Shown piece by piece: positions 308 through 55,654 of a DNA stretch of 64,000 nt. Location of the stretch: the NCBI RefSeq assembly GCF_041886205.1, contig NZ_CP169029.1. One strand, given 5' to 3'. The notes beneath the pieces were generated by a model. The model was not told the origin of the DNA. It saw only the letters and a program-made list of their open reading frames with translations, and made no database searches. How positions within the stretch are numbered: position 1 is the stretch's first letter; every line of letters starts with the position of its first letter. The DNA is from Escherichia coli (lineage in GTDB: Bacteria; Pseudomonadota; Gammaproteobacteria; Enterobacterales; Enterobacteriaceae). A program made the translations under genes and the position numbers.

Positions 308-2303
<1,996 letters not shown>

Positions 2304-2432
2304 GGCGTTGCCTCATAATCATGTAATGGGATAACAGTTTACGAACCCGTTATGGCTTTATATGTGATCTGAATCTCATTAATTATGCAACGCGTGAAAC
2401 TTACATCAAAAATGCGCGACGCATCGCAAATT

Positions 2433-3559
<1,127 letters not shown>

Positions 3560-3653
3560 TTAATTCGTAAAACGTGCTACCGATCACATTAAGAATTCTC
3601 AGCATAGTTGAATTTTAGGGAAGTAACCTCGGGCGATCGCCCAGTTCAGCACA

Positions 3654-29014: not shown

Positions 29015-31015
29015 TCATCCTTGTTGCTGAAGCATGGGGAATAATTGTTCGCAAAGCAAAACACCGTTATTCATTGCTTCTACCCGAGCCTCGCTTTCTG
29101 TATTACGAAATTGTGCCAATACATGTGCCAGCCGATAAAAACCCATCGCGGTGAGGTCATTCGCCAGCAACTCTGCCTGACCAATAGCACTCTGTTCCTG
29201 ATAGCGCCAGCCGTTATGGAGCAGTTGAATAAGTAACGCCTGGCAGCGCATCAGCAACTGAGGAGCGGTAGACGGCACAGGCAGAACGCTGGCAGAAGGT
29301 AGCGGTGCCACAGGCGTAGTTTCTGCGTCCAGCGCCCAGGCGCGGGTTTTTGTCATCATCACCCGTGGTTCCAGTGTCAATTGCCCCTCAACAAAACTGA
29401 CAAAGCCAGAAACCAGACTCACGGGGTCCTCTGTTTGTTGTAACAGAGCTGCCATGCGTTCAACAGCAAAGGGCGAACAGGTAGAGGCTGGTAGGGATAA
29501 TGTCAGCACGTTATCTTCACCTTCGCCGCTGATTACCTGCGCATCCAGCGTTTGGCGGCTGCTATCCCAACCGAGTGAAATACACTCAGCGACCGGCAGA
29601 ATAAATAAGTTATCGACCTGATTAAGAGGCCGTATGCAGGCGGGGGGACGCTGGCGTAAATATTCCCGCAAAGCCACAATGCCCGGCTGGCGTAACGGCG
29701 CGCTCAACATTTGCCAGGCATCAGGCGACAGCGGCACAACGCTGCTTAAGCGGTTGCGGGTAGCTAACAGCAGCTCGCCATCGGCACTGCGTTTTGCTGC
29801 TTGTGAAACAATTTGCCCGCCCGCTAGTGCGCCAGCCTGAAAACTAAACAGCCGACGCGTAGCTGCCGGTGAGTTTTCCTGTTCACTTCGCGGCCAACTG
29901 CGCGAAAGGTGCAAAATACTGCCGGTGTCGGGATCGGTAAACCAGATGCGTAAACCATAATGCTCAATATCCTGCCAGCAACGCATACCTAAAGACACCA
30001 GCCGCAGATGATCAAGCTTTGCTTCTCCGGCAATGCCAGAGCCAACGACCGTGCGCCACGGCACAGGAGGAACTTCACCAATACTGTCGCGCCGGGCCAT
30101 CTCTTGTGCGCAATTTAATCGACTGTTTAATGCCGCAAGCTGACGTAAGCATTCTCCGGCATGATAGTGGCTGGCGCGGGCGTGGAAGGCATCAACGCTT
30201 GCCCGTAGCTGTCGTAGTGATTCACTCACCCATCGCCAGTTGCAGCGTTCCGCCGCCTGCTGCGCGCGACTAAAAGCGGCCTCGTAGTGAATAAGCGGCT
30301 GGCTGATGCCGCCCAGCCATAATGCCTGGCTTAATTGCTGAACATATTGACGACACGCGTTACCCTCGTCGTTGGCAAACGGATCGTTAGATGATGTGAC
30401 GTGTTCGCTGCGCATCTGCCAGATTAAATGAGTCAATTCCGCTTGCTGCGCTTTTGCCTGGACAAAGGCCTGTACTGCCAGTACGACATGTTCGCAAAGT
30501 GTGCCTTCAATACAATCACAACGGGCGAAACGAATGCTGCTACGGGAATAAAAACGCACATCGCTCATCGGTAAGCGGGCAGAGGGAATTTCGCCCGGCG
30601 TACAGAACAACTCAATGGTGATGCCTTTAGCGACCAGCGCCTGTGCGCGTTTGCGGGTAGCATCGGGAAGGGTAGCCAGTTCTTCCAGCCAGATTGCCGG
30701 ATCCCACTCTTCTTCTTTTTCCGTAGACTGAGTGGTGGCACAAAGTCGTTGATAACTTAACACCAGCATCACGCGATGACGGCACATACCGTTGGCCCCG
30801 CAACTGCACTGAGCCTCTTTCAGTGCCTGGCCGTTCGCCAGCTGGGTACGGACACCGTCACTGAAGGTGGCGATTAAAGCGTCGTTCTCATGGCTGATCT
30901 CCGGGACGTTGCCATTTTCCAGTTCCTTAAGACTGCGCTTAACAAAACCGGCATTGCTTAACGCCGTCAGGGCCTGCGGTGTCAGTTCTAATAATTCCGG
31001 ACGTAGTGAATTCAT
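29015..31015 (-). CDS. yehQ: SWIM zinc-finger protein YehQ, about 666 aa
   Basis: CSCGANGMCRHR (CxC..CxH SWIM signature) near N-terminus; start set at MNSLRPELL so that ATG overlaps yehP stop (ATGA). Confidence 0.8.
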   Translation of the reverse strand: MNSLRPELLELTPQALTALSNAGFVKRSLKELENGNVPEISHENDALIATFSDGVRTQLANGQALKEAQCSCGANGMCRHRVMLVLSYQRLCATTQSTEKEEEWDPAIWLEELATLPDATRKRAQALVAKGITIELFCTPGEIPSARLPMSDVRFYSRSSIRFARCDCIEGTLCEHVVLAVQAFVQAKAQQAELTHLIWQMRSEHVTSSNDPFANDEGNACRQYVQQLSQALWLGGISQPLIHYEAAFSRAQQAAERCNWRWVSESLRQLRASVDAFHARASHYHAGECLRQLAALNSRLNCAQEMARRDSIGEVPPVPWRTVVGSGIAGEAKLDHLRLVSLGMRCWQDIEHYGLRIWFTDPDTGSILHLSRSWPRSEQENSPAATRRLFSFQAGALAGGQIVSQAAKRSADGELLLATRNRLSSVVPLSPDAWQMLSAPLRQPGIVALREYLRQRPPACIRPLNQVDNLFILPVAECISLGWDSSRQTLDAQVISGEGEDNVLTLSLPASTCSPFAVERMAALLQQTEDPVSLVSGFVSFVEGQLTLEPRVMMTKTRAWALDAETTPVAPLPSASVLPVPSTAPQLLMRCQALLIQLLHNGWRYQEQSAIGQAELLANDLTAMGFYRLAHVLAQFRNTESEARVEAMNNGVLLCEQLFPMLQQQG

Positions 31016-32148
31016 GACTGAAGATTCTCCGCAAGCCATGATGCCAGCTCGCCCGGCGTCATGGCGGCTATTTGTGCGCCGACATTAACCAGCGCCTGGG
31101 CCGTATCGTGGTCATAGCAAGGTGTTGCGTTGCTATCGAGCGCCGCCAGTCCCAGCACTTTGATGCCGCTCTGGACACACTTTTTCACCTGATGCGTGAG
31201 TAATGATGATGAACCCCCTTCGTAAAAATCGCTCACGAGGATAATGACGCTTTTTGCTGGTTGTTCAATAAGTTGCCGACCATATTCCACGGCACTGGCG
31301 ATATTGGTTCCGCCGCCTAATTGCACTTTCATTAATAACTCTACCGGATCGGCAACGTCTGCCGTGAGATCGACGACGCTGGTGTCAAACGCCACCAGAT
31401 GGGTACGAATACCGGGTAACTGCCATAAACAGGCCGCCATCACCGCTGAGTGGATCACCGAGTCCACCATTGATCCGCTTTGATCAACCAGTAAGACCAG
31501 TTGCCATTGTTCACTGTGGCGCTTAATACGGCTGTTAAAGCGGGGGGATTCGATATACAACTTGCCGTGTTGCGGGTGCCAGTGTTGCAGGTTGGCGCGC
31601 AGAGTACTTTTGAAATCAAAGTTTCGCGCCAGTAGAATAAATGAGCGGCGACGGCGATCGCGGACACCAGAAAAAGCCTGACGAACCTCCTTTGCCAGTT
31701 GTGCCATAATTTCTTCCACAACCTGGCGCACTATCCGGCGGGCGGCAGCCAGTACTTCGGGATTCATCAGATGTTTGGTGTGCAAAACGGCGCGTAGCAG
31801 GCTTTCAGAAGGCTGCATACGTTCCAGCACGTCGAGATTCGTCACCACATCTTCAATGCCATAGCGCAGTACGGCATCGCTTTCCAGCCGCTCAATCACC
31901 TGTTGCGGAAACAGCGTGTGAATACTGTTGATCCACTCAGGAGTGGTGAGATTTGAGCCACCTAATCCACCGGAGCGTTCACCACGCTGGAGCCGTTCAG
32001 GATCGCGCCCATACAGCCACTCCAGCGCGTGGTCTATCTGCCGGGCGTTGTCATCCAGCCCACAAAGGGTCGTTTCTGCCGCTTCGCCAAGAATTAATCG
32101 CCAGCGTTGTAGCTCACGGGTGGTCAGAAGATCGTTCAGTTCAGACAT
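31012..32148 (-). CDS. yehP: von Willebrand factor A (VWA) domain protein YehP, 378 aa
   Basis: MIDAS motif DQSGSM in LVLLVDQSGSMVDS; track ORF trimmed to MSELNDLLTT; start overlaps yehM stop. Confidence 0.85.
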   Translation of the reverse strand: MSELNDLLTTRELQRWRLILGEAAETTLCGLDDNARQIDHALEWLYGRDPERLQRGERSGGLGGSNLTTPEWINSIHTLFPQQVIERLESDAVLRYGIEDVVTNLDVLERMQPSESLLRAVLHTKHLMNPEVLAAARRIVRQVVEEIMAQLAKEVRQAFSGVRDRRRRSFILLARNFDFKSTLRANLQHWHPQHGKLYIESPRFNSRIKRHSEQWQLVLLVDQSGSMVDSVIHSAVMAACLWQLPGIRTHLVAFDTSVVDLTADVADPVELLMKVQLGGGTNIASAVEYGRQLIEQPAKSVIILVSDFYEGGSSSLLTHQVKKCVQSGIKVLGLAALDSNATPCYDHDTAQALVNVGAQIAAMTPGELASWLAENLQS

Positions 32149-34420
32149 GGAAAACTCCCCAGTGTTGCAGCGATGCCAGTGCCTGCTGTTCGAGTTGTTG
32201 ATGATGTGCAATGGCTTGCGGTGGACAATGCAACGGTATTTGCAGCGCCGAAACGGGAAGTTGCGCCAGTTGATAATGCTCAAGCACCTGATGCGCCAGC
32301 GTCCCGCGTTCTCGTGGTGGTAGCCAGGCCATCGCCGCGCGTAAATCGGGCAGGGCATTGATAAAATCGGCATCACTCAGTTGATTTAAATGACTGCTGA
32401 AACCGGCGATAAATGCCGGCTGACAAGCCAGTTGATGACGGGCTAATGCCAGCAAACCGTGCAGCGCCTCGCCGGATTGGGCCGGGGATAACTGCGTCAG
32501 CATTGTCAGCGCCGCTTCGGCACTAGCGTTGGGATGTTCCAGACGCATCAGTGCGCCAAGAGTCGCGCCGCGATCCAGCGCCGGGGCATGAATCGCCTGA
32601 CTGCGGCGCTCCAGTAAGGCTACCGCCGCAGAAAGCGAAACGCCGGATAAGTTAACGCCGCTATGTAGATCGCGCAGGATATGGCAAAGCGCTTGCCAGC
32701 TATGCAGGTGAGCGTGAAACTCCTTTTCATCCGGTCTGCCGTTGGATTCACACAGCCACAGCGTGCGATCGATAGCCGCGCATAACGTCGTTTGTAATAT
32801 CTGCGCGCCTTGCATACCGCTAATTTCATCCAGCCGCCATAAGGCATATAGCACTTCCAGCGCCTGGCCCATTTCGGCAAATTGATTTTCCTGGGCGATT
32901 AATAATGTGAGTTGTTCCAGTAATTGCTCACTAAAGCTCGCCAGGCCCGCTAACGCCGCCTGGCTAAGACATGCGGTAATGCTGCCGATTCCACCCGCGT
33001 CCAGCATATCGGCTTCTAATTTATTGCGTGCGGCTTCCTGGAGTGTTGCACCAAAGCAGGCGGCCTCAATCAATGCCGCATGCTGGCTAAGCGGGCGGGT
33101 TAATTTCCAGCGTTCTTCACCGTTGCCTGCAAGTGTCAGTGTACTTCCCTGCTGGCGTAAAATCCCTGGGATCTCCAGTATTGCCAGCCGATGTAACACC
33201 TGACTTTGCGCTAGTCCATTGGGGTTAAAGCGATTTAAGGTAAGCTGCGCCGGAAGAGAGATTCCGGTACGTTCCAGTTCGCAGGTGACATCTTTTGGCA
33301 GAGGCGGTTGTGGCGTGGAGGGGGCAAGTTTACCGAATCCGTCACCCGCTAATGTGTCTATCAACGTTAGCAGAATCGGATCGGTATCGGGATGAATAAC
33401 TCCGCGATAGCTCCACGGCAACGGCGCGTTCAAGGCTTCTTTAATCAGCGAGCCTGCTATGGCATCCAGCCAGTCAGTGCGTAACGGTAGTGTATGACCG
33501 CGCAACTGTGCCAGTGCCATTGCATGCAGATGTGCGGCAGCCATATCAGCGGTAGAAGCGGGCAATTTGTGCTGGCGCAAACGGGTGAGAACCGTTTTTA
33601 GCAGTTGTTCTCCCGCCTGCTGTAAGCCCCACTGCCAGCACCAGTTTTGCCAGACCGGAGCAGGCATTCCGGAAAGGTATCCTGCCAGCACATCAAGGCG
33701 CTTTTCGCTGTATGGCGTGAGATAACAACCTGTAACGGCATCATCCTGTGAGGGCAATTCTGGCTTGTTAATTTCCTGCGGGCATTCGCGCCACATTTTT
33801 GCCAGTGCCGGAGCGTGCCAGCCACCGCAGACGACTAACACGTCGCCATTGTTTTGCAGCATCGCCCATCCAATCCAGCGGGCCATAAAGGCTTCGCGCT
33901 GACGATTGAGAGCATCTCCGGGGGAATCGCCCCGCAGTTGGGCAAAATAGTGCGCCAGCGCAGAGGGTAATGCAGTTTGCTGGCTTTCATCTTCGAATAA
34001 GTGATCCCACAGGGTGTCGCTGTTATCCATGCGGGTGGCACGCAGCAGCAAGGCCTGGCTTTCCTCTTGCGTATCAGGCGAATCGTCCTCTTCTTCACTC
34101 TGCGCCCAGCAAGGCAAATCGATGAAGTAAGTTTGTGCCTGAATACGACGTGCGGCTTGTAGCGCCTGCCACTCCGGCGAAAATTCAGCAAATGGCGTCC
34201 AGGCACCGCGCCCGGGGGCCGTACCGTCCTGATACTGGCAATAACTGTAAATAGCTACCGGAAGCTGGTGGGCTAAAAACAGTTCGTCTACCCGGTCATT
34301 AAAATCAGCCGGGCCTTCAATCAACACGTATCGTGGCCGCTGGCTTTCGATTAACGATTTCACCAGCCGGGCGCTGGCCGGGCTATGATGCCGGATGCCG
34401 ACAATTAACGGCTCGCTCAT
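32141..34420 (-). CDS. yehM: large alpha-helical protein YehM, 759 aa, function unknown
   Basis: Track ORF trimmed to MSEPLIVGIRHHSPA; Ala/Leu-rich, no motif I recognise; RBS GGAAAG upstream. Confidence 0.8.
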   Translation of the reverse strand: MSEPLIVGIRHHSPASARLVKSLIESQRPRYVLIEGPADFNDRVDELFLAHQLPVAIYSYCQYQDGTAPGRGAWTPFAEFSPEWQALQAARRIQAQTYFIDLPCWAQSEEEDDSPDTQEESQALLLRATRMDNSDTLWDHLFEDESQQTALPSALAHYFAQLRGDSPGDALNRQREAFMARWIGWAMLQNNGDVLVVCGGWHAPALAKMWRECPQEINKPELPSQDDAVTGCYLTPYSEKRLDVLAGYLSGMPAPVWQNWCWQWGLQQAGEQLLKTVLTRLRQHKLPASTADMAAAHLHAMALAQLRGHTLPLRTDWLDAIAGSLIKEALNAPLPWSYRGVIHPDTDPILLTLIDTLAGDGFGKLAPSTPQPPLPKDVTCELERTGISLPAQLTLNRFNPNGLAQSQVLHRLAILEIPGILRQQGSTLTLAGNGEERWKLTRPLSQHAALIEAACFGATLQEAARNKLEADMLDAGGIGSITACLSQAALAGLASFSEQLLEQLTLLIAQENQFAEMGQALEVLYALWRLDEISGMQGAQILQTTLCAAIDRTLWLCESNGRPDEKEFHAHLHSWQALCHILRDLHSGVNLSGVSLSAAVALLERRSQAIHAPALDRGATLGALMRLEHPNASAEAALTMLTQLSPAQSGEALHGLLALARHQLACQPAFIAGFSSHLNQLSDADFINALPDLRAAMAWLPPRERGTLAHQVLEHYQLAQLPVSALQIPLHCPPQAIAHHQQLEQQALASLQHWGVFHV

Positions 34421-34430
34421 GCATCTTTCC

Positions 34431-35519
34431 TCACGGCAGGCGGTGGCGGGCTTGATAATAAGCCTGCCAGTGAGCTTCTTTATGTGTGGCGACTCGCTGT
34501 TCGAAGTAACGGCGCAGACGAGCGCGATCTTCTTCGTTATCTTTGACGATGGTTCCGGCAATACAGTCCACCAGATCGGCTGGCTCACCTGCGCGATTCG
34601 CTAAAAACCAGGCGCGGACGCCCACAGCGTGGGCCACGTTCACGGCTTCAGCGGTGGACATAATCGCTGTTAGTGTATCCATTGACGTTTTCTTTTCGCC
34701 GTTGGCACGCAGATCGCGGAAGGTGCGGACCAGTAACTCCAGTACCGCGTCAGGCACTTTATGCGGAATACCGCTATGGGCCAGCAAACGCGCCGAAGCA
34801 CTGGCGACCAGTTCCAGCTCCTGAGCGAAATCCATAATCGGAAAGACAGTTTCAAAATCGAAGCGACGCTTTAGCGCAGCACTCATCTCATTGACGCCGC
34901 GATCGCGCGTATTGGCAGTGGCAATAATATTAAAGCCTTCCCGCGCATAGAGTTGACTGGCTTCACCAGTGAGTTCCGGCACCGTCATCACCCTGTCAGA
35001 AAGCATACCTAACAGACAGTCTTGCACTTCCAGCGGTGTACGCGTTATCTCTTCAAAACGGACGATTTTGCCGTCGCGCATTCCCTGGTAAAGCGGGGCA
35101 GGGACCAGCGCTTCCGTTGATGGACCATGATTGATAAGCAGAGCGTAGTTCCAGCCGTACTTGATTTGATCTTCAGTGGTAAATGCGCCGCCCTGGATGG
35201 TTAACCCGGCATCGCCGCTAATAGCGGTTGCCAGTAATTCAGACAGGAGAGATTTTGCGGTGCCCGGTTCCCCCACCAACATCAAACCGCGCCCGGTGGC
35301 AAGAGTGACTAACATACGTTCGACAGCAGAGGGACTAATCACGACTTTACGGCTAATATTTTGCGCGCTATCGCCAAGGATAAAAGCACGTGCCGCAGGC
35401 AAACTTAACTGCCAACCGGGCGGGCAAGGTGCGTTATCATTTTGTTTTAATTTTGCCAGTTCATCGGCGTATAACACAGCGGCAGGCGGACGCTGCAGAT
35501 GATTATTCTGCGGTGACAT
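34431..35519 (-). CDS. yehL: MoxR-like AAA+ ATPase YehL, 362 aa
   Basis: Walker A GEPGTAKS in LMLVGEPGTAKSLLSELLA; start set at MSPQNNHL. Confidence 0.88.
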   Translation of the reverse strand: MSPQNNHLQRPPAAVLYADELAKLKQNDNAPCPPGWQLSLPAARAFILGDSAQNISRKVVISPSAVERMLVTLATGRGLMLVGEPGTAKSLLSELLATAISGDAGLTIQGGAFTTEDQIKYGWNYALLINHGPSTEALVPAPLYQGMRDGKIVRFEEITRTPLEVQDCLLGMLSDRVMTVPELTGEASQLYAREGFNIIATANTRDRGVNEMSAALKRRFDFETVFPIMDFAQELELVASASARLLAHSGIPHKVPDAVLELLVRTFRDLRANGEKKTSMDTLTAIMSTAEAVNVAHAVGVRAWFLANRAGEPADLVDCIAGTIVKDNEEDRARLRRYFEQRVATHKEAHWQAYYQARHRLP

Positions 35520-35626
35520 ATATTCATCCCTGAAATGTATTAATGAAATAAACGATATTTTACGCGCAATAAATGTTTGGCGCATTAGTTGTTTGAGCGA
35601 AAAATATCTGGAAAGCAGATCACAGT

Positions 35627-35656
35627 AAATAAAAAAACCTGCTGGTGAGGCAGGTT
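35627..35656 (-). terminator. intrinsic terminator downstream of yehK, upstream of yehL
   Basis: Reverse strand reads aacctgc-ctcacca-gcaggtt followed by tttttttatt. Confidence 0.55.
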
Positions 35657-35825
35657 CTTTTATTTACTATTTTCAGGCCTAACACCACAGCCTGTGCAAC
35701 ATCGTGTTCCAACGAACGAATTATAACCACGGCTGGACCCCGTTGCAATTAAGATAATGAGATTTATAATCCAGACCGTTGGGACGTTGCGCCGGATCGG
35801 ACCAATTTGAATTATTTAGAGTATA

Positions 35826-36143
35826 TTATTCTATTTCTTGGTTGAATATATTCTGTAGTTCACGATTAAAAATTGCTATTACAGTTTCAGGTGATTCACC
35901 TCGTAATTTCCGCTCATCAATACACTCATCTCTTATATAAATCAACGCATCATTTATTAGCGGGTCAGCATCTTCTCGATCACGTTGATGAAATGTTGGA
36001 TGTAGCCGGAATCGCTCCAGTCGATAGACGGAACCTGTAAATAATTCAGAGCATTTATGGATCTCAAGTCTGAAGGAAAACGGATCTTCAGGTACAGGGA
36101 CCTCATAATCGTAAATAGCAACCAGCTCTTTTTGCACGATCAT
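35826..36143 (-). CDS. yehK: small uncharacterised protein YehK, 105 aa
   Basis: 105-aa ORF 59 bp downstream of yehI; synteny with K-12 yehK. Confidence 0.75.
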   Translation of the reverse strand: MIVQKELVAIYDYEVPVPEDPFSFRLEIHKCSELFTGSVYRLERFRLHPTFHQRDREDADPLINDALIYIRDECIDERKLRGESPETVIAIFNRELQNIFNQEIE

Positions 36144-39859: not shown

Positions 39860-42800
39860 TTATTCAAACAGGGCTTCAATATCGTTAATTAGCTCGCTGG
39901 CGGTGATGGCATCGAGTACGGAGAACTGCGCTTCCTGTGTTGAATTACTCCCCCAGCCATAGCTTTCCGCTTTGCCTTCCCATAACCACAGCTTGCTTAA
40001 GAGCTGCTCAGCGCTAAGTTCGGCTGGTGACATACCCACCGCAAAACCTTCGTCGATTTCCATGATTAACGACCAGCGACCCAAAGGTTTGATCATCCAT
40101 CCGATCCAGCCTCCATCCTGTGGTTCGCCCTTTATCCAGCCTTTATTCGCCAGCCCCATGACCCGACCACTCGGGCATTTTCTGCCTGCCCAGCGGGTCA
40201 GTTCACTGGCATTGCGCTCGGCTTCTGTCAGGGCGTAGCTGTTACGGTCGAGCTGGCGGAACGGTGGTAGCAGTTCGTAGTCGGCAAAAAGCTGACCAAA
40301 GGCGGCAGCATCCGTTGGTGATATTTCCAGAACGTGAGGAGTGCCGATAGAGATATCGCCTTCCGGCAGGGTGAAAAGATCATCGTCAGCGGTGCTGTAG
40401 CTGTTATCTTCTGCTACGCGAAAGCAAGCCAGTAGCTGGTTTTCGGCGCTATAAACGCCCCAAATCAGACGGCGGGTTAAGTGACGAACCAGCGGATGCT
40501 CAACCAGGAAGAGCTGGAAGTTTTCCAGCGACCAGCGGCGGCGCAGGCACATGGCGGATTCCAGCCTTGCTACCTGCTGGGCGGCGACGGTACGCGCATC
40601 TTTTTTCAGCAGTTTGTAGCGGTTAACAGCATCGTTCGCCTGTGATTCATCATCGCTTTTGTTTGGTTTGGGCAGGTCTTTCAGACGGCTGCCGGAAGCG
40701 TCACGCACAAACGGTTTTAAGGTTTCATCAAAGCTGACGGTGAACTGGCGTGGGCCGAAATCCAGCAGCAACGAACCGTTATCATCCAGACCGAGATCTG
40801 GTGCTAACCGATCTTCAAGCTCCGCCACCGTGAGTTCGCGGCTCTCGGCAATATCGGCAATTTTCTCTTTTGCCCGCTCCTGTAAAGCTTTGAATTTCAG
40901 TTTCTGAGCAATGCCGTTAAGCTGCATCAGAGCAATATCACTACCGATAGCGGCGAGGATATCAAGCCCGACGGTGGCGCGTTTATGCTGGGATTCGCCA
41001 GGCCAGGCGCGGATTAATGGCGTCAGTTTGCGGGCGGTGTCATCGTTACCGAGAACGCCTAACGCAGTGAACGCCCAACTCTCTTTCGACGGCGCGCCAG
41101 CGGTCTGCCAGGCGGTAAACAGATCCCAGGCAAATTCAGCCAGTGAGTCGGCGGTACAGGCGTCTTTCACCTGTAATATTCCCGGATACAGAACCTCTTC
41201 CTGAGGGAAGCGGAGCATTTCACCGAGGTGGAGGAGGGCTCTATCTGGCAGTGATTGGGCGTTTGCTTTTAATACCGGGCGCGTCCAGAGCGATGGTTGA
41301 TAAAAGGCCGGAAGAGTGGGGATTTTTGTCGGGTGATTATCTAAGGGATCGAGCGCAAGCAGAGCGTTCACCGCATCGGTTACTTCCGGCTGGTTATAAC
41401 GTCGGGCGATTTCTTGCAGTAATGGCTGATGACCGTTTTCGGTAAGCATACGCAAGGCAGCGCGGGCGTTATCCTGTGCTTCACCGGCTTTGCCGAGCGC
41501 CGCAGGCAGCAGGCCGGTAAGGGCATGTTCCGGGTATTTCAACAGCCAGCTACGGGCGTTTTCGCGTAGCGTTTTGAGTTTGTTGAAGGCACGGGCAATC
41601 AGTGGCGCTAATTCGATAGCCGCAAAATATTGTGCTACAGGCAGCGCTTCTTGCGGATAGCGAGATGCTGAGTGGATAAAACCTGTTAAACCAGCAAGTC
41701 GAAGATGCAACATTACTTGTGTTGCACCTGTATGTGGTTCTTTACTAAGGATGTTCCACATCTCGATAGCTTTATTAATGGGTAAAACATGGAGTGAAGA
41801 AAGATTCCATTCGCCCTGATAAGGGGAGTTATAGGACTTAAAAGCATCAATCAGCGCTGAATAATCTTCACGCTGCAAGGCATCCAGTGCTATTTCTGGA
41901 ACATCAATATAGCCTCTATGTTTGTTCCAATCCCAGCGGTTGAATCCCAGGGAGGTCAGAAAAGCTTTTTCTCCCTCAGCTTGCTGATGAGGTTGCCAGT
42001 TATGCTGCACTTGCAGTGTTTTGCTTTTTGTTTCATTTATTGTACAGAAGGATTCTAGGGATAATGGTGCTAAATCCAGCACCGAAATCGTCGATTTTTT
42101 CTTTTTAGCCAGCCAGGGCGGTGAGACTAATACGGCAGGCAGCATATCAGCGTTCGCATAAACTGAAGGTTGTGTCAGTTGTTGCTGGCATGACTTAAGA
42201 ACGGTAACTGCCGGGGCAGATAGCCAGGAGATTACCCGTTCTGCTAATGTTGGTTGTGAGATAAGCATTGTCATTAGCATCATGCGCCAGCGCTTTTCAT
42301 CTTTTTTTGCCAGAAGTTCTGCTAATGCCGCCAGCGCTGCATGTGGAAAGCGAACGAAAGCCTTTGTCATGCGATCGTGGCAACGCTTTCCCTGCTCGCT
42401 TGCATGGATAAGTAGTGTAAGTGCCTGCGGGTGGTTGATATGCATCAACACTTCACCACATGTGTCACCAGCAGCGTAAGGAGCAAAACGGGCCAGCGCA
42501 GCGACACCTTGCTCCTTGAGTATCGTTGCGCACCAGATTTTACCTCCGTAATAATCATCAAATACCTGCCCAGGCTGTCCTGGATAGTATTTTCCCAGTT
42601 CTGCCAATACCTGCTCGTCAGCGGCCGTCAGTTTTAGCCATTCCAGCGCATATAACCCTTTTTGTCCGCAAAGATGTCTGGCAATCTCATGAGCTATTTC
42701 TGGTTTTTCCGGCAACAATAGTGCAACCAGCGGCTGGTGCCAGGTGGGCATGTTTCCGAGAGCGGCAATCAGTTTGTCGGCGCAGCGCTGCCATACATCG

Positions 42801-43618
42801 TCATTTGCAAGTGAGAGATGCTTACGCAGGCGCATTTCAACCGAAGCGAAGCGTAACAGATAGCCAGGCTGCCTGTTATCCGGGGTAACCGTAATGAGAT
42901 GGGCATCATAATCCCAGTCGAAGCGGATGAATTGCAATGCAATGACAACCTCAGTGGCATATTCCAGACCACCTTCCTGGACAATTTGATCCATTAACTC
43001 TTCATGATCGTTACGATTGAAGCCTTGTTCCAGCGCAACCAGTACCGCCAGTACCATCGGAGGTAGCGTGGTGCTAATTGGCGAGTCGATAAGGCCTACT
43101 GCTTGTGTAATTGCCTGCTGCCAGTCGAGTGAACAGGTACTGTAATCGAAGGTGAGCACCTTTTTAAAACGCCGGTGAGTATTCGCGGCAACGGTGCGTA
43201 GCAGGGTTAATTCATCCTCCTGCTGCACCGGATCGCCAGGCCAGCGTCGATGACTGAGTGTGGTTGGCGCAATCTCTGTCGGTAACATGATTTGGGCACC
43301 GTCTGCCAGCCAGGGGAGGAGGTCACCAGCAAATGCTGGTTTGTCTTGTGGCAAAGGGGTAATTTCAGGGCATTCAATAACCTGGCCGGGTGCAAATGTC
43401 GCTGTCATCACGGATACTTCTTCTACGTAGCCCTTTTTTGTTTTCTCCGCAATCAGCTTCAGCTCCGCTTTTTCCGCCGCCGCAGCATCTGCAAAGCTTT
43501 TTACCTGACTTTGCCCGTTACTGCCGACTTTACCCCAGTTAATATGCAGCTCGTTTCCCTGCTGCTCCACCGCCCAGAATTTATGTGATTTTTCGTCCTG
43601 ATAAATATAGGTTTTCAT
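39860..43618 (-). CDS. molR: intact MolR/YehH-family protein, N-terminal WGR domain plus DUF4132, 1252 aa
   Basis: N-terminus MKTYIYQDEKSHKFWAVEQQGNELHINWGKVGSNGQSQVKSF is a WGR-domain signature; uninterrupted 1252-aa frame; 9-bp gap to yehI. Confidence 0.8.
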   Translation of the reverse strand: MKTYIYQDEKSHKFWAVEQQGNELHINWGKVGSNGQSQVKSFADAAAAEKAELKLIAEKTKKGYVEEVSVMTATFAPGQVIECPEITPLPQDKPAFAGDLLPWLADGAQIMLPTEIAPTTLSHRRWPGDPVQQEDELTLLRTVAANTHRRFKKVLTFDYSTCSLDWQQAITQAVGLIDSPISTTLPPMVLAVLVALEQGFNRNDHEELMDQIVQEGGLEYATEVVIALQFIRFDWDYDAHLITVTPDNRQPGYLLRFASVEMRLRKHLSLANDDVWQRCADKLIAALGNMPTWHQPLVALLLPEKPEIAHEIARHLCGQKGLYALEWLKLTAADEQVLAELGKYYPGQPGQVFDDYYGGKIWCATILKEQGVAALARFAPYAAGDTCGEVLMHINHPQALTLLIHASEQGKRCHDRMTKAFVRFPHAALAALAELLAKKDEKRWRMMLMTMLISQPTLAERVISWLSAPAVTVLKSCQQQLTQPSVYANADMLPAVLVSPPWLAKKKKSTISVLDLAPLSLESFCTINETKSKTLQVQHNWQPHQQAEGEKAFLTSLGFNRWDWNKHRGYIDVPEIALDALQREDYSALIDAFKSYNSPYQGEWNLSSLHVLPINKAIEMWNILSKEPHTGATQVMLHLRLAGLTGFIHSASRYPQEALPVAQYFAAIELAPLIARAFNKLKTLRENARSWLLKYPEHALTGLLPAALGKAGEAQDNARAALRMLTENGHQPLLQEIARRYNQPEVTDAVNALLALDPLDNHPTKIPTLPAFYQPSLWTRPVLKANAQSLPDRALLHLGEMLRFPQEEVLYPGILQVKDACTADSLAEFAWDLFTAWQTAGAPSKESWAFTALGVLGNDDTARKLTPLIRAWPGESQHKRATVGLDILAAIGSDIALMQLNGIAQKLKFKALQERAKEKIADIAESRELTVAELEDRLAPDLGLDDNGSLLLDFGPRQFTVSFDETLKPFVRDASGSRLKDLPKPNKSDDESQANDAVNRYKLLKKDARTVAAQQVARLESAMCLRRRWSLENFQLFLVEHPLVRHLTRRLIWGVYSAENQLLACFRVAEDNSYSTADDDLFTLPEGDISIGTPHVLEISPTDAAAFGQLFADYELLPPFRQLDRNSYALTEAERNASELTRWAGRKCPSGRVMGLANKGWIKGEPQDGGWIGWMIKPLGRWSLIMEIDEGFAVGMSPAELSAEQLLSKLWLWEGKAESYGWGSNSTQEAQFSVLDAITASELINDIEALFE

Positions 43619-43630
43619 TGCTAAATCCTT

Positions 43631-46600
43631 TTAATCAAACAGTGATTCAATATCGTTAATCAGCTCGCTGGCGGTGATGTCGTCGAGCACGGAGAAGGGA
43701 TAAACCGATTTGCGCGGCGTCAGTTTGCACAACTGAATGTGCTCAATTTTTTGGCTATCGCTGATTTCGGTGACGGGCAATCCAACGCAGAAGCCTGGTG
43801 TCACACTCAGTTCGACGTAGCCATCATCCACAGATTTATAAAATGAGTAATAGCCGCCACCATCCAGCACATCGCCCCGTTGCCAGCCTTTATTCATCAG
43901 CCCGGCGACGCGCCCACTCGCTGCCTGGCGACCAGCCCAGCGCTGCAAATCGCTGCTGCTTTTTTCTGTCTCAGAGAGCTGAGACCAGGGGCGATCAAGT
44001 TGACTGAATGGTGGCAATAGTTCGTAGTCAGAGAACAGTTGTGCAAATTCAGCAGCCTGCGGGGCCGGGATTTCCAGTACATGCGGGATACCGATACTGC
44101 CCTGCGCAAGGGTTAACGGGTTATCCTGACCGTCGCTAAAACTGCCATCCTCCGCCACGCGGAAACAGGAAATAAGCTGATTATCAGCGTCATAAATGCC
44201 CCACATCAGACGTTGGGTGATATGACGAACCAGGGGATGCTCAACCAGAAACAGGCGGAACTGTTCTGCAGTCCAGCGGCGACGCTGACACATGGCGGCT
44301 TCCAGACGCGAAATCTGTTGTGCAGCTACCGTGCGGACATCTTTTTTCAACAACTTGTAGCGATTTACCGCTTCCTCAGCCAGCGTTTCATCATCGCTTT
44401 TGTTCGGTTTGGGCAGATCTTTCAGACGGTTGCCGGAAGCTTCGCGCACAAACGGTTTTAAGGATTCATCAAAGCTGACGGTGAACAGGCGTGGGCCGAA
44501 ATCCAGCAGTAGTGAGCCGTTATCATCCAGACCGAGATCGGGGGCTAACCGGTCTTCCATCTCTGCGACGGTGAGCTGGCGGCTTTCGGCAATCTGGGCG
44601 ATTTTAGTTCTAGCCTGATCCTGCAAGGCTTTAAATTTTAGCTTTTGCGCAATACCGTTAAGTTGCATCAGGGCGATATCGCTGCCGATAGCAGCAAGAA
44701 TATCCAGCCCGACAGTGGCGCGTTTATGCTGAGATTCCCCCGGCCATGCGCGGATGAGCGGGGTGAGTTTGCGGGCGGTGTCATCGTTACCCAGAATCCC
44801 CAGTGCGGTAAATGCCCAGTTATCTTTGGCTGACCCGCTTGCAATCTCCCAGCTCAAGAAGAGATCCCAGGCGAAATCGGCAAGAGACTGCGGGGTACAG
44901 GCCTCGATTACCTGTGTTATCCCCGGGTAAAGGGTGGCTTCGCGGGGAAAAGAGAGCATGGTGCACAGTTGCAGGATAGCTGAATCCGGAAGTGCCTTGC
45001 CGTTACTGCGCAGAAGCGGGCGGTGCCATACTTCAGGGGTACACCAGGCGGGGAGTTTAGCGATTTTCTGCGGAAAATTATCGAGGGGGTCGCTGTTAAG
45101 AACATCTAACAAACCCGTAAGCACTTCTGCCTGATTATAGCGGTGGGCAATTTCTTCCATTAACGGCTGATGCCCATGATGAGCCAGATAGCGAATTGCC
45201 GTAGCGGCGTCTTCACGCTCACTACCTGCTTTTCCCAGCACGGAAGGCAGCAGGCCCGTAATGGCATGTTCCGGATAGGTTAACAACCAACGTTCAGCAA
45301 CATCACGTACAGATTTAAGCTGACGAAAGGCGCGAGCCATTAAGGGGGCTACTTCGGTTGCGCCAAAACGTGCCGCTAAAGGAATGGCTTCCTGAGGTAC
45401 GACTAAGGCGCGACGCAGCAAGCCGGGCAATGTCGGAAGACCGTAATATTCCACTACTTCACATGCGTTAATCAGATGTAGGTGAGTCAGTGCGTTCCAT
45501 ATTTTCAGTGCTTTATTTTCTGATAACTGAAGCAATACCGACACATTGACAAGGATATGACTTGCCCACCGAGGTTTATCCCAGATCTTTAATAAAGCTT
45601 CGTAATTGTCCTGCTCGAAAAAATCAATGGCAGCCTGAGGTATACCCCAACCAAGCTCTTCGCAATGGAAGTTCAACAAATCCAGGATATCTTTCGCTGA
45701 TGGGGATGGCGCAGATGGCTCAGTCAGATTTTTTGTTGCGGGGATAGATTCAGGGGGGGAAGAGGTAATACCCGGAGAGTGAGGTTGATACCAGCAATCT
45801 TTTTCTTTTTTTCCAACCATGAAGGGGCGATCAATATACTGGGTAATTCATTCTTATGAGCAATTTTTTCGATGGACATAAGCTGAGGAAAATAACTAAA
45901 TAAAATTTGTTGCTGTTTTTCGTCAAGCCAGGGAAGCGTTTTATGTAAGGCTTGCGCATTACCCAAGATGATGCGCTGCAGTAAACGATAATAGTGAGAG
46001 TTATTTGTGTAATTTAAGGCTTTTGTTAATGCATAAAGTGCAGCTTCAGGATGTAAATTTGTTGCGTGTTCCACTTCACTGATACATTCTTCTTTTATTA
46101 ATATATTAATGGCGTCAGGATGATTAACTTGTGTAATTAGATTTTTAACTGAATAACTATCCTTTATCCATGGCTGAAGAAGTGGAAGAGCTTTTACCCC
46201 TCGTTCACGCAGTAATGTCGCAGTGCATTTTTCCGCCGTCTGCCAGTCGTTATAGCGCTTAAGTTGGTTAAGATTCATCAATTCATTGAGTGCCTGCGGA
46301 TCTGTGGCAACGATATCCAACCATTCCATTTCTGGGTAATTAGCACATTGCACTAAGTCAAAGACAATTTGATTAGCAATTTCAGGTTGTTCAGGCAAAA
46401 GAAAACCTATTAAAGGGCGTTTACGTGGAGACAGGGAAGGCAACGCTTGAGTAAGCTTTTTCATGCACCGTTGCCATGTTTTTTCATCAATACGCGAGAG
46501 ATGATTTCGCAAGTGAAAATCTACAGTGCTGAAGCCGAATTCAAAACGTTGTTCTGATATTGTGTTACTTAGAATAAGCGTTGGTACGCAATTTTTTGTA

Positions 46601-47370
46601 AAAAAATTGTATCCCATGCGAACATACAAAAGGCATTTATCTAAAGCTTCACAATTTCCCGGATCTTGATTTTGATCATCTGATATCTGAATTTGCTGTA
46701 ATAGCAAGACTAATTCGGTCGCGTATTCTACCCCATGCTGTTGCGCCAGATAATCAAAAAGATCATTAGCGCTATCGCTATCTTGCATAAGAAACTTGAC
46801 CAGCAAAAAGAATGCATTGGAGAAAATCGAACCGTCTATATTTTTCTGCTGAACGCGCATGATTGCTTCATCCCGGCCTCGTTGCCATTCCGGGCGGCAG
46901 TCACTCACATCAAAATGCTGTAATTGTGCAAGAAAATAGTATTCCTCATATTTGTTTTCCCATAAGAGTGACCATAACGAGATATCTTTAGCAAACGTCC
47001 TGACACTGTCGGCTGGGAATTTCCTACTGCTAAATACTCTCTTTGTTTCGAGAATGATTGGTTCAAGGTCCGCAATCCACGGTGGTGTGTCGACATCAGT
47101 AATAATTGGATGTTGTTCGCTATCATCAGCTGTGGTGGGAACAGTTATCAGCATGTTTATATCGTCAGTCGATTTTACATACCCCTTCTTCACCTTCTCC
47201 GCAATCAACTTCAGCTCCGCTTTTTCCGCCGTTGCAGCATCCGCAAAACTTTTTACCTGGCTTTGCCCTTGGGTGCCAACTTTTCCCCAACTGATATGCA
47301 ACTCGTTTCCCTGTTGCTCCACCGCCCAGAATTTATGTGATTTTTCGTCCTGATAGATAAAGCGTCTCAT
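43631..47370 (-). pseudogene. molR: second MolR-family paralogue split by a frameshift near 45727-45745 (WGR-containing 548-aa N-terminal ORF plus 729-aa C-terminal ORF)
   Basis: ORFs 45724..47370 and 43631..45820 overlap by 97 nt in different frames; joined they parallel the intact paralogue along its whole length; N-terminus MRRFIYQDEKSHKFWAVEQQGNELHISWGKVGTQGQSQVKSF. Confidence 0.7.
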
Positions 47371-47470
47371 TCTGCATCCCTGTAATTTTATCCAGTTGAA
47401 TGCAGATGCTACCAGTATTTATGCGGGTTAGAGAGAGACAAAATCGCAAGAAAACAACTTTAGGAATTTA

Positions 47471-47501
47471 TAAAGAAAAGGCGCTGTCGATGCAGCGCCT
47501 T
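47471..47501 (-). terminator. metG intrinsic terminator
   Basis: Reverse strand reads aaggcgctg-catcga-cagcgcctt followed by ttctttat, just after metG stop. Confidence 0.6.
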
Positions 47502-47510
47502 GAAGGGGGA

Positions 47511-49544
47511 TTATTTCACCTGATGACCCGGTTTAGCACCGGCATCCGGGCTTAGCAGGAAGATATCTTTCCCGCCAGGACCAGCAGCCATTACCATGCC
47601 TTCGGAGATACCAAAGCGCATTTTACGCGGCGCCAGGTTAGCCACCATAATGGTGTGACGACCAATCAGAGCCTGCGGATCCGGGTAAGCAGAACGAATG
47701 CCGGAGAAAACATTACGTTTTTCACCGCCGAGATCCAGTGTCAGTCGCAGCAGTTTGTCAGAACCTTCAACAAACTCTGCATTTTCAATCAGCGCCACGC
47801 GCAGGTCAACTTTAGCGAAGTCGTCAAAGGTGATGGTTTCCTGAATCGGATCGTCTGCCAGCGGGCCAGTAACTGTCGCGGCAGCTGCTTTCACTTCTTC
47901 TTTAGAGGCTTCCACCAGTGCTTCAACCTGCTTCATATCGATGCGGTTATACAGCGCCTTGAACGGATTCACTTTGTGGCCCAGCAGCGGTTGCTGGATA
48001 CCATCCCAGGTCAGTTCCGTATTGAGGAATGCTTCTGCACGCTCGGTCAGTTTCGGCAGTACCGGCTTCAGGTAAGTCATCAGCACGCGGAACAGGTTTA
48101 TGCCCATTGAGCAAATTGCCTGCAGGTCGGCATCGCGGCCTTCCTGTTTCGCCACAACCCACGGAGCCTGTTCATCGACATAGCGGTTAGCCAGATCAGC
48201 CAGCGCCATGATTTCGCGCACGGCTTTACCAAATTCGCGGCTTTCCCACGCTTCACCAATCACTTCAGCGGCATCAGTGAAGGTTTTGTACAACTGCGGG
48301 TCAGCCAGTTCGCTTGCCAGCACACCGTCAAAACGCTTGTTGATAAAGCCCGCATTACGAGAGGCCAGGTTAACCACTTTGTTAACGATATCGGCATTCA
48401 CGCGCTGAACGAAATCTTCCAGGTTGAGATCGATATCATCAATGCGCGAAGAGAGTTTCGCAGTGTAGTAGTAACGCAGGCTGTCAGCGTCAAAATGATT
48501 CAGCCAGGTGCTGGCTTTAATAAAGGTACCGCGAGACTTAGACATCTTCGCGCCGTTCACCGTCACATAGCCATGAACAAACAGGTTGGTCGGCTTGCGG
48601 AAGTTGCTGCCTTCCAGCATTGCTGGCCAGAACAGACTGTGGAAGTAAACAATATCTTTACCGATGAAGTGGTACAGCTCGGCGGTGGAGTCTTTCTTCC
48701 AGTATTCATCGAAGCTTACGCTGTCGCCGCGCTTGTCGCACAGATTCTTGAAAGAACCCATATAGCCAATCGGCGCATCTAGCCAGACGTAGAAATATTT
48801 ACCCGGCGCGTTCGGAATTTCAAAACCGAAGTACGGCGCGTCGCGGGAGATATCCCACTGTTGCAGGCCGGATTCAAACCACTCCTGCATTTTATTTGCC
48901 ACCTGCTCCTGCAACGCACCGCTGCGGGTCCATGCCTGCAACATTTCGCTGAAAGAGGGCAGATCAAAGAAGAAGTGTTCAGAATCACGCATTACCGGCG
49001 TAGCGCCAGAAACCACCGATTTCGGCTCGATCAATTCAGTCGGGCTGTAGGTCGCGCCGCAAACTTCGCAGTTATCGCCGTATTGATCCGGGGATTTACA
49101 TTTCGGGCAGGTGCCTTTCACAAAACGGTCCGGCAGGAACATGCCTTTTTCCGGATCGTACAGCTGAGAGATGGTGCGGTTTTTAATAAAACCGTTTTCT
49201 TTCAAGCGAGTATAGATAAGCTCAGACAACTGGCGGTTCTCTTCGCTGTGCGTCGAGTGATAGTTGTCATAGCTGATGTTAAAGCCTGCGAAATCAGTCT
49301 GATGCTCCTGACTCATTTCGCCAATCATCTGCTCCGGGGTGATACCAAGCTGCTGAGCTTTCAGCATGATTGGCGTACCGTGGGCATCGTCGGCGCAGAT
49401 GAAGTTGACCTCGTGGCCGCGCATTCGCTGGTAACGGACCCAGACATCAGCCTGGATGTGCTCCAGCATATGGCCGAGGTGGATTGAGCCGTTAGCGTAC
49501 GGCAGTGCGCACGTCACCAGAATTTTCTTCGCGACTTGAGTCAT
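47511..49544 (-). CDS. metG: methionyl-tRNA synthetase, 677 aa
   Basis: HIGH motif (NGSIHLGH), KMSKS motif, zinc knuckle CPKC..CEVC; start set at [11 protein letters not shown]. Confidence 0.93.
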
Positions 49545-49675
49545 AGTAGGCATTACTTCTTAATAGTGAAAAGGGGTTAGATAGTACCAAATGGGAAAAT
49601 GTTAAGTAAGTACTTCTCTATATTCTTCAGGTAAACTATCAGCTGATGGTTTATCTATACAAAAAAGGAGTCGGG

Positions 49676-52921: not shown

Positions 52922-54956
52922 TTGCAGGAGCTGCCTATGTTGAGAATGACCCCACTTGCATCAGCAATCGTAGCGTTATTGCTCGGCATTGAAGCTTATG
53001 CAGCTGAAGAAACCTTTGATACCCATTTTATGATAGGTGGAATGAAAGACCAGCAGGTTGCAAATATTCGTCTTGATGATAATCAACCCTTACCTGGGCA
53101 GTATGACATCGATATTTATGTCAATAAGCAATGGCGCGGGAAATATGAGATTATTGTTAAAGACAACCCGCAAGAAACATGTTTATCAAGAGAGGTTATC
53201 AAGCGGTTAGGCATTAATAGCGATAACTTCGCCAGCGGTAAGCAATGTTTAACATTTGAGCAACTTGTTCAGGGTGGGAGCTATACCTGGGATATCGGGG
53301 TTTTTCGTCTCGATTTCAGTGTCCCGCAGGCCTGGGTGGAAGAACTGGAAAGTGGCTATGTTCCACCGGAAAACTGGGAGCGGGGTATTAATGCGTTTTA
53401 TACCTCTTATTATCTGAGTCAGTATTACAGTGACTATAAAGCGTCGGGTAATAGTAAGAGTACATATGTACGTTTTAACAGCGGGTTAAATTTACTGGGG
53501 TGGCAACTGCATTCTGATGCCAGTTTCAGTAAAACAAATAACAATCCAGGGGTGTGGAAAAGTAATACCCTGTATCTGGAACGTGGATTTGCCCAACTTC
53601 TCGGCACGCTTCGCGTGGGTGATATGTACACATCAAGCGATATTTTTGATTCTGTTCGCTTCAGCGGTGTGCGGTTGTTTCGTGATATGCAGATGTTGCC
53701 TAACTCGAAACAAAATTTTACGCCACGGGTGCAGGGGATTGCTCAGAGTAACGCGCTGGTAACTATTGAACAGAACGGTTTTGTCGTTTATCAGAAAGAG
53801 GTTCCTCCTGGCCCGTTCGCGATTACAGATTTGCAGTTGGCCGGTGGTGGAGCAGATCTTGATGTCAGCGTGAAAGAGGCGGACGGCTCGGTAACCACCT
53901 ATCTGGTGCCTTATGCAGCGGTGCCAAATATGCTGCAACCCGGCGTGTCGAAATATGATTTTGCGGCGGGTCGTAGCCATATTGAAGGGGCGAGCAAACA
54001 AAGTGATTTTGTCCAGGCGGGTTATCAGTATGGTTTTAATAATTTATTGACGCTGTATGGTGGCTCGATGGTCGCGAATAATTATTACGCGTTTACTTTG
54101 GGGACTGGCTGGAATACACGCATTGGTGCCATTTCCGTCGATGCCACGAAGTCGCATAGTAAACAAGACAACGACGATGTGTTTGACGGGCAAAGTTATC
54201 AAATTGCCTACAACAAATTTGTGAGCCAAACGTCGACGCGTTTTGGTCTGGCGGCCTGGCGTTATTCATCGCGTGATTACCGGACATTTAATGATCACGT
54301 TTGGGCAAACAATAAAGATAATTATCGCCGTGATGAAAACGATGTCTATGACATTGCCGATTATTACCAGAACGATTTTGGCCGTAAAAATAGCTTCTCT
54401 GCCAATATGAGCCAGTCATTGCCAGAAGGCTGGGGGTCTGTGTCCTTAAGTACGTTATGGCGAGATTACTGGGGGCGTAGCGGCAGCAGTAAGGATTATC
54501 AGTTGAGTTATTCCAATAACTGGCGGCGGATAAGCTATATCCTCGCGGCAAGCCAGGCGTATGACGAGAATCATCATGAAGAGAAACGTTTTAATATTTT
54601 TATATCGATTCCCTTTGATTGGGGTGATGACGTTACGACGCCTCGTCGGCAAATATATATGTCTAACTCAACGACGTTTGATGATCAGGGGTTTGCCTCA
54701 AATAATACGGGATTATCAGGAACCGTTGGAAGCCGGGATCAGTTTAACTATGGGGTCAACCTGAGTTATCAGAATCAGGGAAATGAAACGACAGCTGGGG
54801 CGAATTTGACCTGGAACGCGCCGGTTGCGACAGTGAATGGCAGTTATAGTCAGTCGAGTACTTATCGACAGGCTGGAGCCAGTGTTTCAGGGGGCATTGT
54901 CGCCTGGTCGGGGGGCGTTAATCTGGCGAACCGTCTTTCCGGGTAATGACTCCAAC

Positions 54957-55460
54957 TTATTGATAGTGTTTTATGTTCAGATAATGCCCGATAACTTTGT
55001 CATGCAGCTCCACCGATTTTGAGAACGACAGTGACTTCCTGCCCAGCCTTGCCAGATGCTGCCTCAGATTCAGGTTATGCCGCTCAATGCGCTGCGTATA
55101 TCGCTTGCTGATAACGTGCAGTTCTCCCTTCAGGCGTGATTCATAAAGCGGCCAGCCATCCGTCATCCATACCACGACCTCAAAGGCCGACAGCAGGCCC
55201 AGAAGACGCTCCAGCGTCGCCATAGTGCGTTCACCGAATACGTGCGCAACAACCGTCTTCCGGAGCCTGTCATACGCGTAAAACAGCCAGCGCTGGCGCG
55301 ATTTAGCCCCGACATAGCCCCACTGTTCGTCCATTTCCGCGCAGACGATGACGTCACTGCCCGGCTGTATGCGCGAGGTTACCGACTGCGGCCTGAGTTT
55401 TTTAAGTGACGTAAAATCGTGTTGAGGCCAACGCCCATAATGCGGGCAGTTGCCCGGCAT
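54957..55460 (-). CDS. insB: IS1 transposase InsB, 167 aa
   Basis: 167-aa ORF with IS1 InsB sequence ([24 protein letters not shown]). Confidence 0.88.
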
Positions 55461-55654
55461 CCAACGCCATTCATGGCCATATCAATGATTTTCTGGTGCG
55501 TACCGGGTTGAGAAGCGGTGTAAGTGAACTGCAGTTGCCATGTTTTACGGCAGTGAGAGCAGAGATAGCGCTGATGTCCGGCGGTGCTTTTGCCGTTACG
55601 TACCACCCCGTCAGTAGCTGAACAGGAGGGACAGCTGATAGAAACAGAAGCCAC
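55379..55654 (-). CDS. insA: IS1 InsA, 91 aa
   Basis: 91-aa [43 protein letters not shown] with zinc-finger Cys pairs. Confidence 0.88.

Follow-up and report, generated by a model that had tools for sequence, protein, structure and literature searches.

A one-base break in a hybrid member of the mosaic WGR-DUF4132 gene array between metG and yehK of Escherichia coli

In Escherichia coli K-12, the position right after metG is occupied by yehF (b2115) and the yehH pseudogene (b4499), historically called molR, which belong to the WGR + DUF4132 family and are themselves broken into a WGR-bearing N-terminal open reading frame (ORF) and a remnant (MG1655 2196474-2200269). YehI (b2118) belongs to the same array of tandem paralogues. 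We analyzed the corresponding locus in a stretch of 64,000 nucleotides (nt) from an E. coli genome (contig NZ_CP169029.1; hereafter the window), which contains the metG-yeh region in reversed orientation, in the order yehQ, yehP, yehM, yehL, yehK, copy 1, copy 2, copy 3, metG, and apbC, where copies 1 to 3 are the array genes. Copy 3, the member closest to metG, lacks one base and is thereby split into two ORFs. The array holds three genes in the window and two in K-12. Copy 3 belongs to a type that we call B, with 94-100% identity to other genes of that type, whereas the K-12 yehF/yehH gene is of type M, with ~49% amino acid (aa) identity to B overall and lesions that differ from the one in copy 3. 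At the DNA level, the K-12 gene matches B in three stretches only (93% over nt 1-194, 72% over nt 2107-3410, and 91% over the last 66 nt). Copy 1 is the counterpart of YehI, which has the same C-terminal architecture as B but no WGR domain and 34-35% aa identity to it. Our comparisons indicate that the break in copy 3 is an ordinary private frameshift, or a sequence error, and that it affects a hybrid gene of a paralogue array already known to decay often.

An earlier note, drawn from the sequence alone, had described the metG-proximal gene as a frameshifted MolR-family copy next to an intact paralogue, and this description proved accurate. The two ORFs (45724..47370 and 43631..45820) are both present and overlap by 97 nt, the Met-Val-Gly start of the 729-aa ORF is an artefact, as had been suspected, since the native frame is entered only after codon 23, and the adjoining copy 2 encodes a complete WGR + DUF4132 protein of 1252 aa. 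On the coding strand, copy 3 reads CCCCCCCTGAATC where the intact allele reads CCCCCCCTGGAATC around codon 541, so that CTG GAA becomes CTG AA. On the + strand, the break reads TTC-AGGGGGGG against TTCCAGGGGGGG in the intact allele (in longer context, TTCAGGGGGGG against the same TTCCAGGGGGGG), and the intact form with the extra C reads CCAGGGGGGG. Without the deletion, a CCAGG (Dcm) motif runs directly into a stretch of seven G at this site, and the lost base is one C of this motif.

Comparison with orthologous loci, which the earlier note had proposed as a check, showed the same allele as a continuous ORF of 1246 codons in every other assembly examined. Over window positions 43400-47600, the missing base was the sole difference from E. 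coli 2017.06.05CC (NZ_AP027790.1), and in the two complete genomes of 2017.06.05CC and wlxctx60 the gene is annotated as an intact coding sequence of 3741 nt (WP_001252237.1). Five near-identical assemblies carry the extra base and the continuous frame, and three of these, retrieved for alignment, differed from the window by 0 mismatches and exactly one gap over 13.6-15.8 kb. Furthermore, the exact intact protein was found on 170 contigs, and neither truncated product was found in an index of 15 billion proteins. The exact copy 2 protein of the window occurs on 21 contigs, with an intact 1246-aa neighbor at all three places listed; at the other 18 places, the neighboring genes encode mostly the same proteins. 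Taken together, these comparisons indicate that the lesion is private to this sequence.

Apart from the break, copy 3 has the features of its family, with a WGR domain at the N-terminus, a DUF4132 domain at the C-terminus, and a position between metG and yehK-yehL. In the repaired protein, Pfam identified WGR (PF05406) at aa 7-68 (E = 3.5e-17) and DUF4132 (PF13569) at aa 980-1163 (E = 7.3e-48); in copy 2, both domains lie in the same places (aa 7-68, E = 1e-17 for WGR, and ~aa 980-1163 for DUF4132). The DUF4132 domain of copy 3 falls in the downstream ORF and is separated from the start codon. A real break would close the reading frame eight codons past the deletion, leaving a 548-aa N-terminal fragment and 706 native C-terminal codons without a start of their own, and the DUF4132-bearing half of one array member would be lost. 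The array genes lie 9-12 nt apart, each with its own Shine-Dalgarno sequence. No consensus promoter was predicted on the coding (-) strand inside copies 2 and 3, the matches on this strand being confined to copy 1 (38623-38594) and the yehK-yehL spacer (35748-35720). Rho-type polarity on copy 2, copy 1, and yehK would be a possible further consequence of a real break.

Three explanations of the frameshift had been offered in the earlier note: pseudogenisation, programmed frameshifting, or a sequencing error. The first and the last stand, and programmed frameshifting does not. We lean toward an inactivation that is very recent and not selected, in an array gene that the cell can do without, at a probability of about one in two, because the assembly is otherwise clean and because array members are commonly broken in other strains. 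Thirty-seven other genes of the window are full length, and yehB alone is broken, by an IS1 element. Moreover, 32.8 kb of the window compared with independent assemblies showed 0 single-nucleotide polymorphisms (SNPs) and this indel alone, in a sequence that holds 40 homopolymers of at least 6 bases, 9 of at least 7, and 81 CCWGG sites; the lack of any further indel or frameshift in these genes and this sequence argues against a faulty consensus. An apparent second indel, seen against the assembly L077, arose where the alignment ended at a prophage inserted in mlrA, and it gives no sign of an error-prone assembly.

Several observations weigh against a real lesion. The break may exist in the assembly only, and the missing base belongs to a Dcm motif that abuts the 7-base homopolymer. 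The combination of a Dcm motif with a homopolymer is a notoriously hard context for long-read consensus, and the passage of the window sequence through IS1 suggests that long-read data were used. Any real mutation is a priori rare given 0 SNPs in 32.8 kb, and genuine slippage should have struck the 7-base run, not a CC dinucleotide. A consensus or assembly error, in a cell that carries the intact 1246-codon hybrid allele WP_001252237.1, is therefore nearly as probable as a mutation; it would also fit the wide occurrence of the intact allele and the alignments of up to 15.8 kb with three independent assemblies, which show no SNPs. The array, its hybrid member, and the similarity pattern described below would be unaffected by such an error. 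Annotators would do well to label copy 3 'frameshifted, verify by reads'.

Programmed frameshifting would require a -1 slip at the heptamer A_AAA_AAG (45811-45805), joining both ORFs into one protein in which only residues 523-540 are altered. The heptamer is of the dnaX type, stands in the correct frame inside the ORF overlap, and recurs in every B allele, within the codons for a conserved W-L-x-K-K-K-K motif. In copy 3, a -1 slip would restore the frame and give the trans-frame peptide EKDCWYQPHSPGITSSPP. However, the other B alleles, even those with DNA identical to the window, are single continuous ORFs that need no shift, and a slip in these intact alleles would truncate the protein to a short product of ~548 aa. 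In addition, no stimulatory structure was found in the 70 nt downstream (minimum free energy of -8.3 kcal/mol, z = -0.18 versus shuffled sequences), and the heptamer does not occur in the A, C, M, X, and yehI paralogues. Programmed frameshifting was therefore rejected as extremely improbable, the two-ORF arrangement not being conserved in orthologues. The heptamer may at most permit an unprogrammed, leaky rescue of a few per cent. Elsewhere in the locus, yehP (31015-32148) has been discussed as a +1 frameshift hotspot in E. coli on the basis of an FSscan scan (PMC2790909).

Base-by-base alignment indicated that copy 3 is an A/B recombinant, a clear and recent recombination at the 5' end of the gene that the earlier note had overlooked. 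Gene A of strains 6EVA and GF4-3 and the 150 nt upstream of it show no difference from copy 3 and its upstream sequence, up to coding nt 129. Against the B gene of 6EVA, 16 of the 18 differences fall in the first 130 nt, and coding nt 138-260 show none. The parental match thus switches sharply at homologous positions, with a flank that matches A. Strains bearing A have four or five array copies, and the WGR-coding 5' segments of A and B are ~84-85% identical over 200 nt; one unequal homologous crossover between these conserved segments gave rise to the hybrid, with loss of the ~3.8-kb gene A. The occurrence of the intact hybrid allele on 170 contigs implies that it is established in a lineage.

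The earlier note had also proposed recent gene conversion between copies 2 and 3, on the grounds that they share long protein blocks and mirrored antisense ORFs. These observations are correct: a 52-aa block (...KFKALQ) occurs in both copies, and all four antisense ORFs exist (40659..40907 versus 44400..44618, and 43292..43588 versus 47110..47340). The suggested nucleotide comparison of the two copies further revealed a strongly non-uniform divergence: identity is 86% over the first 150 nt, falls to ~40-45% through the N-terminal half, rises to 77-91% between coding nt 2500 and 3100, and reaches 89% over the last 66 nt. Within the 52-aa block, however, 129 of 156 nt are identical, and all 27 differences are synonymous. 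In Nei-Gojobori windows, the proportion of synonymous differences (pS) was 0.6-0.9 almost everywhere, which is near saturation, including 0.6-0.7 at coding nt 2518-2817 and from nt 2968 on; the proportion of nonsynonymous differences (pN) at nt 2518-2817 was 0.09-0.11. A lowered pS was found in three places only: it was 0.44 in the first 150 nt, in part because this segment is A-derived, and 0.26 at coding nt 2818-2967, and it was also lowered over the last 66 nt. The identical protein blocks are the result of purifying selection on the C-terminal half. As for the antisense ORFs, their positions coincide with the two tracts of highest nucleotide conservation, at coding nt ~31-330 and ~2710-2972, which explains why they are mirrored.

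Exchange between paralogues does occur. At coding nt 2800-2980, 78% of the codons that specify the same amino acid in copies 2 and 3 are identical, against ~50% in the flanks, and 19 such codons in succession are identical in the tract (p = 0.0006 by permutation). B is 86-92% identical in this tract to C/M alleles of four strains and 69-75% identical to A. Since B is similarly close to the C/M alleles of other strains, the exchange predates them, and the tract, with a synonymous divergence (dS) of ~0.3, was probably exchanged long ago between the lineages of B and C/M. This ~180-nt tract, together with the non-uniform divergence and the conserved 5' and 3' gene ends, is what might be cited for a recent conversion between copies 2 and 3 as the source of the long protein blocks. 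The synonymous differences within the 52-aa block, the high pS on both sides of the tract, and the age of the tract itself make this explanation very improbable, and no tract with at least 99% nucleotide identity and specific to the copy 2/3 pair of this genome exists. The last 66 coding nt are 86-98% identical among all WGR-type paralogues and form, with the 12-nt spacer and the 5' ~200 nt of the next gene, a repeated array junction. These conserved gene termini may act as recombination substrates.

The hybrid copy 3 is one of several mosaic genes in the metG-yehK interval, which in E. coli contains a tandem array of two to five molR(yehH)/yehI-type genes. The common M gene is 94% identical to window copy 2 in its 3' half and 95% identical in its 5' 1.6 kb to a gene of strain RM14723, and this gene in turn becomes B-like (96-98%) past nt ~2950. 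The X gene of GF4-3 joins an N-terminal half of its own to a B-like C-terminal half, and for one and the same pair of alleles, dS can be 0.003 or 0.27, depending on the segment. At a smaller scale, 12 differences between B alleles are clustered within 30 nt (coding nt 2515-2544), resembling a micro-conversion patch for which no donor was matched among the sampled paralogues. Copy 1 matches K-12-type yehI at 92-96% identity over nt 1-1322 and again over nt 1905-3648, and its middle cassette (nt ~1322-1905) cannot be aligned to that gene, so that yehI is also a mosaic. The ratio of nonsynonymous to synonymous substitution rates (dN/dS) was 0.26-0.42 for N-terminal halves and 0.10-0.30 for C-terminal halves, indicating that purifying selection acts on intact members and is relaxed somewhat in the variable half, for which these values gave no sign of gene-wide positive selection.

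Of 5,426 complete genomes, 5,419 were matched by a probe for the WGR-coding 5' segment, at 7,067 places in all; the median number per genome was 1 and the highest 4. Type B proved rare, with 8 genomes at 80% coverage or more. The 5' ends of Escherichia paralogues are 82-94% identical to each other and 70-79% identical to those of Klebsiella, a comparison that is confounded by the difference in GC content between the genera; it is consistent with concerted evolution, without being proof of it. The mosaic array also offers an explanation for the variability of the locus and its frequent 'disruption' in population studies, such as the work on sequence type 131 in which the 'DUF4132 region' is used as an insertion site (PMC9334617).

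The coordinates of the locus and of the features of copy 3 are collected in Table 1.

Table 1. Genes of the metG-yeh locus in the window and features of the split copy 3
Feature	Position	Strand	Remarks
yehK, yehL (MoxR AAA+), yehM (DUF5682), yehP (VWA), yehQ (SWIM)	29018..36143	-	all intact
Copy 1, YehI-like DUF4132 paralogue without WGR, 1215 aa	36203..39850	-	
Copy 2, intact WGR + DUF4132 paralogue, type C, 1252 aa	39860..43618	-	
Copy 3, split WGR + DUF4132 gene, type B, 1246 codons if intact	43631..47370	-	
metG	47511..49553		apbC next in window order
Upstream ORF of copy 3, 548 aa	45724..47370	-	540 native codons (WGR + variable helical N-terminal half), 8 out-of-frame codons (NLSPQQKI), TGA
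Downstream ORF of copy 3, 729 aa	43631..45820	-	first 23 codons out of frame (MVGKKEKDC...SSPP), other 706 native, including DUF4132
Single-base deletion in copy 3	45751..45752	-	
WGR domain of copy 3, aa 7-68	47167..47352	-	Pfam; PDB 2ra8 match
DUF4132 domain of copy 3, aa 980-1163 of intact protein	43883..44434	-	Pfam
A-derived segment: metG-proximal spacer + coding nt 1 to ~129-137	47234..47510	-	
Crossover interval, coding nt 130-137	47234..47241	-	A-specific sites end at nt 129, B-specific sites begin at nt 138
52-aa block identical to copy 2, coding nt 2596-2751	44621..44776	-	
Tract of low synonymous divergence versus copy 2	44392..44572	-	copy 2 counterpart ~40651-40831
Conserved last 66 coding nt of copy 3	43634..43699	-	
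A_AAA_AAG heptamer, 0 frame	45805..45811	-	codons GAA AAA AAG of W-L-E-K-K-K-K motif

The two halves of copy 3 differ in base composition, the N-terminal half (45500-47100) having a GC content of 39-42% and a third-position GC (GC3) of 0.37, and the C-terminal half and the neighboring genes 50-55%. The low GC content of the N-terminal half is common to all B alleles. Outside E. coli, the closest relative was found in Escherichia sp. MOD1-EC7003 (75% aa identity). A homologue search with the B N-terminal half returned a single match, to the E. coli DUF4132 protein P0016 of 928 aa, which covered 57% of the query at 60% identity; since even its own cluster was missed, the search was uninformative as to where the low-GC cassette (40-41%) came from.

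Other variation was observed in the remainder of the window. The IS1 element (768 bp, 54941-55708) lies inside the fimbrial usher gene yehB, with YehB residues 1-668 and 665-826 flanking the insertion. NZ_AP027790.1 has a ~1.35-kb deletion that ends at the place of this IS1 and fuses yehB to the next fimbrial gene. The same genome carries, in a TolC-family gene (window ~12027-12233), an insertion of ~12 kb that is not in the window; it encodes an IS110 transposase, a replication endonuclease, a Zot-domain protein, and a GspD-like secretin and resembles a filamentous prophage. L077 (GCA_011943515.1) is identical to the window over 17 kb save for a lambdoid prophage (integrase, RecT, YqaJ) in mlrA (window ~25202, from ~17078 in L077). 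The annotation of NZ_AP027790.1 gives rcnA as frameshifted. In the window, all 288 residues of the RcnA reference were matched in one frame (tblastn, 97.9%), with no frameshift visible; direct translation of 57882-58727 gave 10 stops, the coordinates and frame of this segment being unconfirmed.

Relatives of the array genes were next considered beyond E. coli. A scan of one genome per species returned 62 loci in Enterobacterales, Burkholderiales, Xanthomonadales, Methylobacterium, Myxococcota, Acidobacteriota, and Mycobacterium, and at 44 of these a YehL homologue was encoded in the 10-kb flank, usually with YehM, YehP, and YehQ. The DUF4132 gene of some alphaproteobacteria is placed between yehM and yehP. 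In Methylobacterium, Aureimonas, and related bacteria, the WGR-DUF4132 gene stands between yehL-yehM and yehP-yehQ homologues, unlike in E. coli, and the persistence of the same partners in a different gene order supports a functional linkage over chance adjacency. Multiple copies are not particular to E. coli: Klebsiella oxytoca has three array genes at the syntenic metG position, and full-length tandem WGR-DUF4132 genes number at least five in Massilia aquatica and at least seven in Massilia rubra, upstream of yehLMP homologues. Compared with B, proteins of other genera are 42-63% identical in the C-terminal half across phyla and 25-34% at most in the N-terminal half, even in Klebsiella and other Enterobacterales. 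The AlphaFold model of B residues 640-1246 (predicted local distance difference test score, pLDDT, of 90) shows a helical solenoid followed by alpha/beta domains.

The array proteins appear to act, without a catalytic role, as HEAT/ARM-like scaffolds or adaptors alongside YehL, YehM, YehP, and YehQ, and their variable halves would confer specificity on this MoxR/VWA/SWIM machine. A more speculative proposal, to which we assign a low probability, is that the multi-copy WGR-DUF4132 protein is the diversifying specificity or sensor part of a five-part system with the MoxR ATPase, DUF5682, VWA, and SWIM proteins. Such a system would be conserved from Enterobacterales to Myxococcota and Mycobacterium; its N-terminal halves would be swapped as cassettes through the conserved gene termini, and its members would be continually gained, lost, and broken, the lesion of copy 3 being one instance. 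The B heptamer might then give a leaky rescue of copy 3 or a short isoform from intact alleles. Against a defined role stand several negative results. PADLOC-DB 2.0 gave no match for the three DUF4132 proteins and, for YehK, YehL, YehM, YehP, and YehQ, only a marginal DpdF match (YehP, E = 0.007); fold matches were generic, and the literature searched yielded mostly name collisions and no functional study of DUF4132 or the yeh genes.

The frameshift itself is of little weight, the locus being already known as a pseudogene in K-12. Only the cassette-like evolution of the array and the conservation of yehLMPQ as its partners merit further work, and the array with its MoxR/VWA/SWIM cassette provides a concrete, testable handle on DUF4132/DUF5682, a large family.

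Comparison with better-known systems places the locus among them as follows. Copy 3 has, in frame and upstream of its break, the slippery heptamer A AAA AAG that is identical to that of the dnaX -1 frameshift, but it differs from dnaX in having neither a stimulatory stem-loop nor a conserved need for the shift, its relatives being continuous ORFs. The array resembles other tandem paralogues subject to unequal crossover or conversion in that homologous exchange takes place between co-resident paralogues, here evident from the A/B junction and the reassorted N- and C-terminal halves. The tufA/tufB pair is an example of concerted evolution of duplicated bacterial genes; in contrast to such evolution, homogenisation in the array is limited to short gene termini and small internal tracts, and the gene bodies are extremely diverged. 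Finally, MoxR AAA+ ATPases work with VWA partners in the RavA-ViaA, NorQ-NorD, and CbbQ-CbbO systems. In many phyla, the array is likewise genetically linked to YehL and YehP, which are a MoxR ATPase and a VWA protein, and it differs from these systems by its added conserved partners, namely, DUF5682, a SWIM protein, and the multi-copy WGR-DUF4132 proteins themselves.

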